Assembly: GCA_951406725.2 (NCBI GenBank)
Contig: OX597830.1
Location: forward strand, 20,212,001 to 20,276,000
Direction: 5' to 3'
DNA: 64,000 nt
Source of the DNA: Octopus vulgaris
Taxonomy: Eukaryota
Shown piece by piece: positions 4,556 through 61,950 of the stretch. The translations under genes and the position numbers were made by a program. Every line of letters begins with the position of its first letter. Position 1 is the first letter of the stretch. The notes below the pieces were generated by a model. It had not been told where the DNA came from and ran no database searches. It worked only from the letters and a program-made list of their open reading frames with translations.

Positions 4556-5075
4556 GCCAAAAAAAGGCATTTTTCGTCTGTTTGGTTTTTCTCATTTGTC
4601 CTCTTGTTTGTTTGATTTCCCGTATTGGGTTCCCTTTTTATTTCTCTTCTTGTATTTTTTTGTACATGTATTTTTATCTTGTATTTTATTGTGTAGTTTT
4701 ATTGTTACATACTGTTTGCGTTCTTACCCGTTTTACCCCGCTGCTTCGAATTTTATTTTAATTCTCTCGCAGGAAGGCCTAGTTAACGAGTGTCCTGTCT
4801 TGCCTTCGAAACACGCCTGAGTTAACTAGCGACAGCTGATGACGGTGGATTTTTCCTTGTGTAGCATGTCCTGTACTTGTTTTCTTGTTGTAAAAAATTT
4901 TTGGATTTTTCCTTGTGTTGCCTGTCCTGTACTTGTCGTTAAATTTTTGTTTTTCCCGTTTCTACGTCTTGTTGTGGCGTCCTGTACTTACGTATATTTA
5001 TTTATATATGCATGTATATATACATGTAGATGTAGGTACGTACATATATGTTTGTATGTATGCATATATTTTTAA
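4556..5075 (+). mobile_element. Non-autonomous dispersed repeat in (TA)n carrying a permuted hammerhead-like motif (copy 1)
   Basis: Homologous to 24897-25235 (-): shared ttttacccc.ctgc..., ttc.cgc.ggaagg, ccttcgaaac, ctga.ga, ttttcc and the tail atatatgcatgtatatatac.tgtaga.gta.gtacgtacatatatg. Confidence 0.7.
4779..4848 (+). ncRNA. Candidate non-circularly permuted hammerhead ribozyme, predicted cleavage after GUC at 4794
   Basis: Order: GTGT-C, CTGTC, ttgccttc, GAA-ACAC ... GACAG, CTGATGA, cggtgg. Stem III ACAC/GTGT, stem I CTGTC/GACAG, extra helix ctagttaac/gttaactag. Confidence 0.6.
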
Positions 5076-24896: not shown

Positions 24897-25232
24897 AAAA
24901 CATATGCATATATACATACATATATGTACGTACATACCTCTACACGTATATATACATGCATATATGGGTACAGGACACCCCAAAAAACGTCGAACACAAT
25001 GAGAAACGAAAACATAAACACAAAACCAAGGAAATGGACATGTTCTTAAAACAACGAAAAAATAGAGTACAGGATATACAAAAAAAGGAAAATTCCCCTT
25101 CTTCAGTCGCCTTAATTTCATCTACTCCACGTTTCGAAGGTCAAGGCGATACATGACTTCGATGAAATTTTCCTTCCCGCGAAAATCAAATTAAATAAAA
25201 TTTGAGATTTTTTTGCAGAGGGGTAAAAATGG

Positions 25233-49746: not shown

Positions 49747-49964
49747 AATTGATTCCCATTAATCAATAAATATATATTTATAAAACGTGCGTTTTCTGCG
49801 ATGATTTCGTAAGCGTTATCGATTTTACAATTCTGTAATTAATAATAATGATATGTTTTACGCTTAAGGCTTATAAGTGAACACTTTGTATTGAGAAAAG
49901 AAATAGTTTAATACTGGGGTCCATAAGCCCTCGACGGAAAGAAGAAGAAAAAAGTAGTGTTTTT

Positions 49965-50031
49965 CATACGTGTGGGACACGAACACACACCTCTACGTTT
50001 TGGCGACAAGTGTGCTACCATTGCACCAACG
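49965..50031 (-). mobile_element. tRNA-like SINE head or tRNA pseudogene
   Basis: Reverse complement cgttggtgcaatggtagcacacttgtcgccaaaacgtagaggtgtgtgttcgtgtcccacacg has A-box and B-box-like motifs but a poor cloverleaf. Confidence 0.4.
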
Positions 50032-50053
50032 TATATATAGATTCGTGTACGTG

Positions 50054-60670: not shown

Positions 60671-61053
60671 GGGAGCACACCGTCGGTTACGACGACGAGG
60701 GTTCCGGTTGATCCGAATCAACGGAACAGCCTGCTCGTGAAATTAACGTGTAAGTGGCTGAGCACTCCACAGACACGTGTACCCTTAACGTAGTTCTCGG
60801 GGATATTCAGCGTGACACAGAGAGTGACAAGGCCGGCCCCTTGAAATACAGGTACAACAGAAACAGGAAGTAAGAGTGAGAGAAAGTTGTGGTGAAAGAG
60901 TACAGCAGGGATCACCACCATCCCTGCCGGAGCATCGTGAAGCTCTAGGTGTTTTCGCTCAATAAACACTCACAACGCCCGGTCTGGGAATCGAAACCGC
61001 GATCCTATGACCGCGAGTCCGCTGCCCTAACCACTGGGCCATTGCGCCTCCAC
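60671..61053 (-). mobile_element. SINE family C, full length, with 11-bp TSD
   Basis: TSD aatttcagaat at 60660-60670 and 61054-61064. Near-identical to 35743-36127. Confidence 0.92.
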
Positions 61054-61149
61054 AATTTCAGAATATAAACATGTTCGACTGTTGATAATCTGACATATTT
61101 TAAATGTGGTCATTCCATCTCACACCTTAACTCAATGTTGTTTTGTTCT

Positions 61150-61614: not shown

Positions 61615-61950
61615 TGCCTATACTTATCGTAAAGTCAATACCACCATGACCGATATCCAAACTACAGTGGAGAAGGCTAGCCACTGGATTTGGTTAAAAA
61701 GAGACGATGAGCGATGGCTAGAAGAATATTGAGCTTTATTTGATAACCAGTTGATCTAGTAAGCAGGGTCTCATATCAGTGAGGGGGCGGTGCGCATTGA
61801 TGCTGTCGAAAGGTAGGCCCCGAAACGGCGTGCGTTCTCTCCTGATGACCCCATACACTTGCTGGCTTCCGGTATGCGGAGTTCTTGACTGGTAGCACTT
61901 GCATGTGCTAGTTGTTTGCAAGACATATTTCCGACGCATTCATCATTAGC
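61615..61950 (+). mobile_element. 3' end of a HERO-like RLE non-LTR retrotransposon (ORF C-terminus plus 3' UTR)
   Basis: DIQTTVEKASHWIWLKRDDERWLEEY* resembles the recalled HERO C-terminal E.AS.W.W.KR...W motif. Confidence 0.55.
61800..61856 (+). ncRNA. Candidate non-circularly permuted hammerhead in a LINE 3' UTR, predicted cleavage after GUC at 61807
   Basis: ATGCTGT-C GAaAG gtagg cccc GAA-ACGGCGT gcgtt CTcTC CTGATGA cc ccatac. Stem III 7 bp, stem I 4 of 5 bp. Confidence 0.55.

Follow-up and report, generated by a model that had tools for sequence, protein, structure and literature searches.

A conserved split-core hammerhead-type fold in the 3' UTR of a restriction-like endonuclease LINE and a candidate RNA-circle route of its copying

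The window, i.e., the whole stretch of 64,000 nucleotides that was analysed, contains a 311-bp copy of a LINE at 61616-61926 (+). The copy is 5'-truncated and decayed, and it is 91% identical to full-length copies of the element. By repeat search with 61616-61926 in genome G000 (2.8 Gb), 2,651 first-look candidates were obtained, of which 40 were scored and 30 fetched. The fetched copies shared a common 3' end without a poly(A) tail and differed in their 5' truncation points. Their reading frame was similar to the C-terminus of reverse transcriptase (RT) proteins (47-62%), and full-length copies were located in G000 with one matching RT protein as query. At one of these loci, L083, an open frame of 1,175 aa lies within a 3,738-bp unit. 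The closest solved structures to the L083 protein were R2 proteins, with R2 chains at the top of the PDB search (9nl2, 8gh6), and RVT_1 was present in close homologues. What is taken here to be the endonuclease motif was assigned by eye. Judged by its sequence, the element is a restriction-like endonuclease (RLE) LINE, i.e., it has one ORF with RT and a C-terminal restriction-like endonuclease, and its 5' truncation is variable.

The name HERO is presumptive for this LINE, as it was taken from motifs and from the first-pass annotation, and no named HERO proteins were found among the protein matches of the reading frame. Insertion in the HERO clade is mostly non-site-specific, according to PMC4640811. 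The flanks of the 30 aligned copies were unrelated, which agrees with insertion of this type, and no target-site duplication of the window copy was evident by eye. No relatives were found among viral contigs. The alternative of a SINE whose 5' end is constant was rejected, because the shared start of the first matches was the window copy's own truncation. Other repeats were noted in the window. An interspersed repeat lies just upstream at about 60690-61055, with short matches in L002, L012, and L021, and a weak tRNA match (31.6 bits), probably SINE-derived, was found at 49964-50035 (-).

Table 1. Parts of the LINE copy and of the predicted fold in the window
Feature	Position	Strand	Remark
Final codons of the ORF (C-terminus past the restriction-like endonuclease) and stop	61616..61732	+	stop TGA 61730-61732
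Outer helix 5' strand, extends helix Y	61756..61763	+	pairs with 61858-61865
Helix Y 5' strand	61766..61768	+	pairs with 61849-61851, directly after A9
Hairpin Z, loop AUCA, directly 5' of stem II	61770..61783	+	5 bp here, 6 bp in L083
Stem II 5' strand, starts at G10.1 (G-run)	61784..61788	+	pairs with 61817-61821
Helix X 5' strand	61790..61795	+	pairs with 61830-61835; counterpart of the type SGC stem I-II interaction helix
Stem III 5' strand and GUC (61805-61807)	61802..61807	+	predicted cut 61807/61808; 5' truncations at the equivalent base
Stem I 5' strand	61808..61812	+	pairs with 61837-61841; A61810 breaks one pair in the window copy
Stem II 3' strand (61817-61821), GAAA (61822-61825), stem III 3' strand (to 61829)	61817..61829	+	
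Helix X 3' strand, stem I 3' strand (61837-61841), CUGAUGA (61842-61848), helix Y 3' strand	61830..61851	+	
Predicted cut to the 3' junction of the insertion, 119 nt; putative internal priming site	61808..61926	+	

The first-pass annotation had pointed out GUC, GAAA, and CUGAUGA in the 3' UTR, in an order that is not a circular permutation of the hammerhead. All three motifs are in place, with GUC 75 nt past the stop codon (Table 1). The same order, i.e., site, GAAA, CUGAUGA (S-G-C), was also correctly reported at 4779 (+) and 25095 (-) in unrelated sequence. The intervals 4773-4848 (+) and 25085-25170 (-) belong to two unrelated repeat families, with 946 and 1,954 first-look candidates, and their motifs have an upstream stem II of 6 bp and 5 bp, starting with G, and a helix X of 9 bp; helices Y and Z are indistinct there. 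Rfam at gathering threshold gave no ribozyme in the 64-kb window. Nested folding of the window copy gave a hairpin between the upstream strand and the core (z -1.2), and folding of this kind cannot depict the two pseudoknots of the fold. Stem I is GAGAG/CUCUC in most copies, and the window copy has an A.C mismatch in it; the fold of the window copy itself is probably dead. A small hairpin at 61866-61881 (+), 3' of the ribozyme, has its sequence kept in L113, L114, and L115, and it is possibly a protein-binding or priming signal.

For comparison of related 3' UTRs, 80 loci were fetched from metagenome contigs. A loose descriptor, which required the core, stem I, and stem III, matched 51 of them, and L189 was removed before clustering as it had a core mismatch and outlying spacing. 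The six-helix hammerhead-type core was found in the remaining 50/80, which is beyond chance. It was absent in 30 relatives, where some contigs were too short and others had decayed. The 50 loci together with L083 gave 28 clusters at <75% identity, and 27 were used for partner swaps. L129, whose contig stops 2 nt past the core, was excluded from the shuffles; the automatic stem II of L158 was misplaced (3 bp), yet this locus was kept in the counts.

Upstream stem II, helix X, and helix Y, which were not part of the descriptor, had means of 5.3, 6.9, and 9.0 bp against 2.9, 4.4, and 4.0 bp in partner swaps over the 27 clusters, and the observed mean was reached in 0/1000 swaps for each of the three, although these counts are not probabilities because the clusters are related. 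Helix Y, 9 bp on average in the relatives, has 4 bp in L083. At the canonical position of stem II, directly after CUGAnGA, only 1.2 bp was found against 0.9 in swaps, and G at 10.1 was present in 3/28 clusters. Pairs 2-4 of the upstream stem II showed four or five pair types each. CUGANGA was kept in 27/28 clusters and the NUH site in 28/28, in a sample for which the descriptor had selected core, site, and stems I and III. Hairpin Z abuts stem II on its 5' side in most clusters. From the evidence on upstream stem II, X, Y, and Z, the strand order is therefore Y5'-Z-IIa-Xa-IIIa-site-Ia-IIb-GAAA-IIIb-Xb-Ib-CUGANGA-Y3'. G10.1-C11.1, A15.1-U16.1, and stems I, II, and III with covariation are all present, stem II only via the upstream strand. 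The strand order is S-G-C, and not the circular order without core pseudoknots of hammerhead types I-III. The central proposal of the annotation, that the 3' UTR of an RLE LINE contains a hammerhead core with a non-circular permutation, was thus borne out in related elements, with the site-GAAA-CUGANGA order in 50/80 and covariation over 27 clusters. Its details changed. Stem II had been said to open with an internal loop, but it is a perfect helix when built with the upstream G-run (6 bp in L083). Of the 7 bp given to stem III, five were kept and the other two compete with helix X.

The fold amounts to type SGC with an opening between A9 and G10.1, where helices Y and Z are inserted. One extra base at this position is tolerated in viroid hammerheads. 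In Eckert et al. 2023 (PMC10085705), cleavage is shown for type SGC hammerheads (HRIMA-1 and variants), which have the site-GAAA-CUGANGA order. The two folds share this order, a short linker between stems I and II, a helix joining the outer stems I and II (X here), and a full core. According to the same text, stem II of type SGC comes directly after CUGAUGA, as the search patterns demanded, whereas in the window fold the 5' strand of stem II precedes stem III, and block C of type SGC is thus not intact. Helices Y and Z stand between A9 and G10.1. The text also assumes that the CUGAnGA block cannot be interrupted, which counts against cleavage by a split core, and describes type SGC from metatranscriptomes, with none from genomes of known organisms.

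Two further structural features were observed among the relatives. The apex of hairpin Z is a 6-nt palindrome in 11/27 clusters against 3.9 in shuffles, an imperfect null (UGAUCA in six and UGGCCA in two; e.g., L122, L134, L138, L139, L142, L147, L154, and L160). It resembles a kissing-loop dimerisation signal and is missing from the window's subclade. At the junction of stem III and helix X, distant relatives (e.g., L126, L142, L151, and L160) have GA opposite a 3-nt bulge plus GA, which is presumably akin to a kink-turn, and the nearest subclade has a plain bulge of 5-6 nt.

The upstream strand had been read in the annotation as a regulatory anti-ribozyme, which would pair with the core and switch off 3'-end processing. 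The complement between 61766-61789 and 61833-61851 exists and is the nested minimum free energy (MFE) fold of the window copy, but the perfect gggtc/gaccc pairing needs a C-to-T change (61769) that is found in 1/30 copies. A shorter G-run and A61810 are the other changes of the window copy that favour this duplex. Over 27 clusters, the duplex had a mean of -7.75 kcal/mol against -7.83 in swaps, i.e., no better than shuffled, and 174/300 shuffles reached it; the swap retains the invariant core and hence probes the portion in stem I. Only in the four nearest clusters (L083, L113, L114, and L115; 4/28) can a duplex of -12 to -16.5 kcal/mol form, whereas the other 24 clusters showed no signal. The strand instead covaries as the 5' strand of helix Y, hairpin Z, and the 5' strand of stem II. 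Hairpin Z is transcribed first and masks the ATCAG that had been paired to the core. The Z loop is AUCR in the four nearest clusters, and a 5-nt run complementary to the core was found in 5/27 Z hairpins. In L083 the core is free in the MFE and the catalytic helices are 15.7 kcal/mol better than the nested MFE when pseudoknot penalties are not yet included, whereas in the window copy they are 1.6 kcal/mol worse, again before the penalties. The fold that pairs the core is the nested MFE in L114 and L115 also, so an alternative fold is possible in the nearest subclade. As for the processing itself, copies end 119 nt beyond the predicted cut, and it is 5' ends, not 3' ends, that cluster at this position. 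A dedicated switch is highly improbable, and the claim is mostly an effect of the decayed window copy.

The footprint of the predicted cut was searched among genomic copies. A pattern for copies without all three bases ahead of the cut gave 9 matches in G000, and all nine start cleanly at the cut, eight next to unrelated flank and one, L107, fused to the interior of the element. A control pattern for any start within a 30-nt window gave 57 matches, all inspected, i.e., 34 indel or diverged copies and 23 true 5' starts. Nine of the 23 are at the cut base and one is a base earlier, with at most two at any other position. When two possibly diverged copies are discounted, 7/23 starts are at the cut base (P 7e-6). 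No clean break at the cut was seen among the 34 indel or diverged copies. Because the starts are clustered, RNA whose 5' end lay at the predicted scissile bond has most likely served for reverse transcription in the germ line. The conserved hammerhead-type fold would thus be likely to cut RNA after GUC. A strong stop of the reverse transcriptase at the fold could partly mimic the pile-up of starts, but it is the less apt explanation because a polymerase has no reason to stop at exactly the cut base. Apart from these starts, a deletion of about 21 bp, lying between a pair of short direct repeats, was noted recurrently in 11/57 control matches (L194, L198, L199, L203, L206, L208, L226, L230, L235, L236, and L242). 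It loses the 5' strands of stem II and helix X.

Many copies are longer than one unit. Among 20 long loci, seven reach the unit start, and in each of these the element's own 3' end comes before the unit start, joined to it at an invariant seam. When the first 155 bases of the unit served as query, 40 loci were scored and 30 fetched, and 27 of them reach the unit start, of which seven overlap the earlier long loci and L257 and L262 look like duplicates. In 26/27 the element's own 3' end stands seamlessly upstream, for 27 bp to 1,977 bp, and in the last one for nine bases only. With 3' ends upstream in 26/27, the seam thus does not mark an RNA 5' end. The copies have 1.0-1.5 units, the longest 1.45 and 1.53, and copies of two or more units were not seen among the examined loci. 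In the relatives L134, L139, and L156, the motif occurs twice, 3.6-3.7 kb apart, on both sides of the ORF. Private variants common to both ends of a copy were found in L083 (one) and L090 (four), and these were absent from 19 other loci; the 5'-only variant lists of L081 and L097 were alignment artefacts. Since both ends share variants, the duplication has been remade from one template. The suggestion that the ribozyme resolves longer-than-unit transcripts is supported by these copies with their own 3' end upstream.

Self-cleavage in R2 is by an HDV-like ribozyme at the 5' end of the element. If the LINE followed the R2 scheme, only the upstream ribozyme would cut, freeing the 5' end from a host transcript, and uncleaved long transcripts would be the templates. 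The persistence of sequence on both sides of the site in most copies is in line with this, as is the core-pairing MFE fold of L114, L115, and the window copy, and unprocessed RNA was the main substrate for a Penelope-like element in PMC11167929. However, of the 27 copies with a full start, 0 have their first base at the upstream cut and 20 extend beyond it. A linear route only shortens the duplication, yet private variants show that it is remade, and no two-unit source array was found among the examined loci. Full-length copies also run into the 5' UTR at their 3' junction, by 7 nt in L083. This scheme is improbable for the LINE. Nor does the annotation's conclusion that uncleaved RNA was used for insertion follow from persisting sequence, because RNA that was cut and rejoined yields equal continuity.

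The 3' junctions carry a further trace of the template. In long copies, the segment 61808..61926 continues into the 5' UTR of the element. At 34/67 junctions the copy runs into the 5' UTR by at least 1 nt (11 expected), and at 12/67 by at least 3 nt (1.2 expected); L087 was left out of this count as its inner seam was picked up instead. The run-on points to priming within a template that continues, and target preference could partly account for the microhomology.

Considering these observations together, it is reasonable to propose that the unit RNA cut by the ribozyme is probably closed to a circle, on which priming would take place about 120 nt beyond the cut and copying would go round, often for more than one turn. 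The circle is proposed because genomic copies exceed one turn of the unit. A source locus with a ribozyme at both ends would be transcribed, and two cuts would release a permuted monomer of 3,738 nt, which begins 122 nt ahead of the seam. Hammerhead products have 5'-OH and 2',3'-cyclic phosphate ends. Either the ribozyme or a host ligase would join the ends of the monomer, and the LINE protein would prime at the seam using a few matching bases. On an unligated monomer the enzyme would run off at the cut and leave a 120-bp insert; inserts of about 120 bp ending at the cut were seen. On a circle, copying would pass into the 3' UTR and the ORF and might cross the seam again, by which a second ribozyme would be regenerated. 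To reach the ORF the cut must be crossed, and to rebuild the upstream ribozyme the seam must be crossed, and often the cut again; copies crossing cut and seam were seen.

The same copies could also come from a cut linear monomer that is never ligated, if RT primes 120 nt from the 5' end and, on reaching this cleaved end, switches to the cleaved 3' end of that monomer or of a second one. A precise jump gives equal copies, because DNA bears no mark of ligation. Template jumping is established for R2 RT, inserts ending at the cut show that linear templates are copied, and L107, a jump from the cut base, shows that such jumps do start there. Two RNAs could be brought together through palindromic Z loops. 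On the other hand, template jumps often add or drop bases, whereas nearly all aligned copies have an exact junction at the cut, and the 34 indel or diverged copies include none with a clean break there. A jump on linear RNA is therefore considered unlikely, and the circle is the preferred reading. Against the circle stands the report, in PMC11167929, that ribozyme cleavage of a Penelope-like element was unneeded in vitro, with no reads ending at the cut.

Shortened units were also encountered. Eight of the 27 start-reaching loci (L254, L256, L258, L260, L263, L266, L268, and L269) are internally deleted and keep both ends and the terminal redundancy, and they are candidate non-autonomous mini-circles. 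In sequencing run X1, a contig of 1,283 nt closes on itself as an internally deleted unit (about 1.25 kb; joint L083 2173/4657). The joint is also in X4 and is absent from X2 and X15; the run type is not on record, and contigs of sequencing runs reveal no ends, strand, or level. The self-closing contig was not counted because a tandem or terminally redundant locus gives an equal loop.

The element has features in common with two known groups. Like R2 and other RLE elements, it has one ORF with a zinc finger, RT, a CCHC-like knuckle, and a PD-D/ExK endonuclease, and in both a self-cleaving ribozyme makes the 5' end of the template, which is a prediction here (PMC13580325). R2 is primed at the RNA 3' end, whereas the present LINE has a hammerhead-type ribozyme in the 3' UTR, putative internal priming, and copies above one unit. 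With Penelope-like elements and non-LTR retrozymes, it shares a hammerhead in a terminal repeat and an internal start of reverse transcription, and for retrozymes circular RNA and rolling-circle copying have been proposed (PMC11167929 and bioRxiv 10.64898/2026.07.22.740005). Those elements have type I hammerheads and a GIY-YIG Penelope protein or none (same sources), while the present element is an autonomous LINE of the RLE type, and its fold is split and permuted in a non-circular way. In the open-access texts searched, neither the split core nor a hammerhead in this LINE clade nor circle-based copying of RLE LINEs was described.

The feature is real and conserved, and the hammerhead variant is new; the copying route of the LINE, to go by genomic copies, is probably new also. 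The wider reading is slightly favoured, i.e., that a widespread, autonomous LINE clade would replicate via a covalently closed RNA circle from a split-core hammerhead and would integrate by target-primed reverse transcription in rolling-circle mode, starting at an internal site. If this is true, it adds a hammerhead wiring that the published permutation scheme presumed absent, in animal genomes and at high copy number. For one LINE clade, priming at the 3' end of a linear template would be overturned, and LINEs would be tied to Penelope-like elements and retrozymes. If the unrelated repeat families of this genome also have the same fold, animal retroelements would share it as a general device. 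For RNA-only gene insertion tools derived from R2 relatives, an RLE protein with priming inside a stable circle would be relevant.
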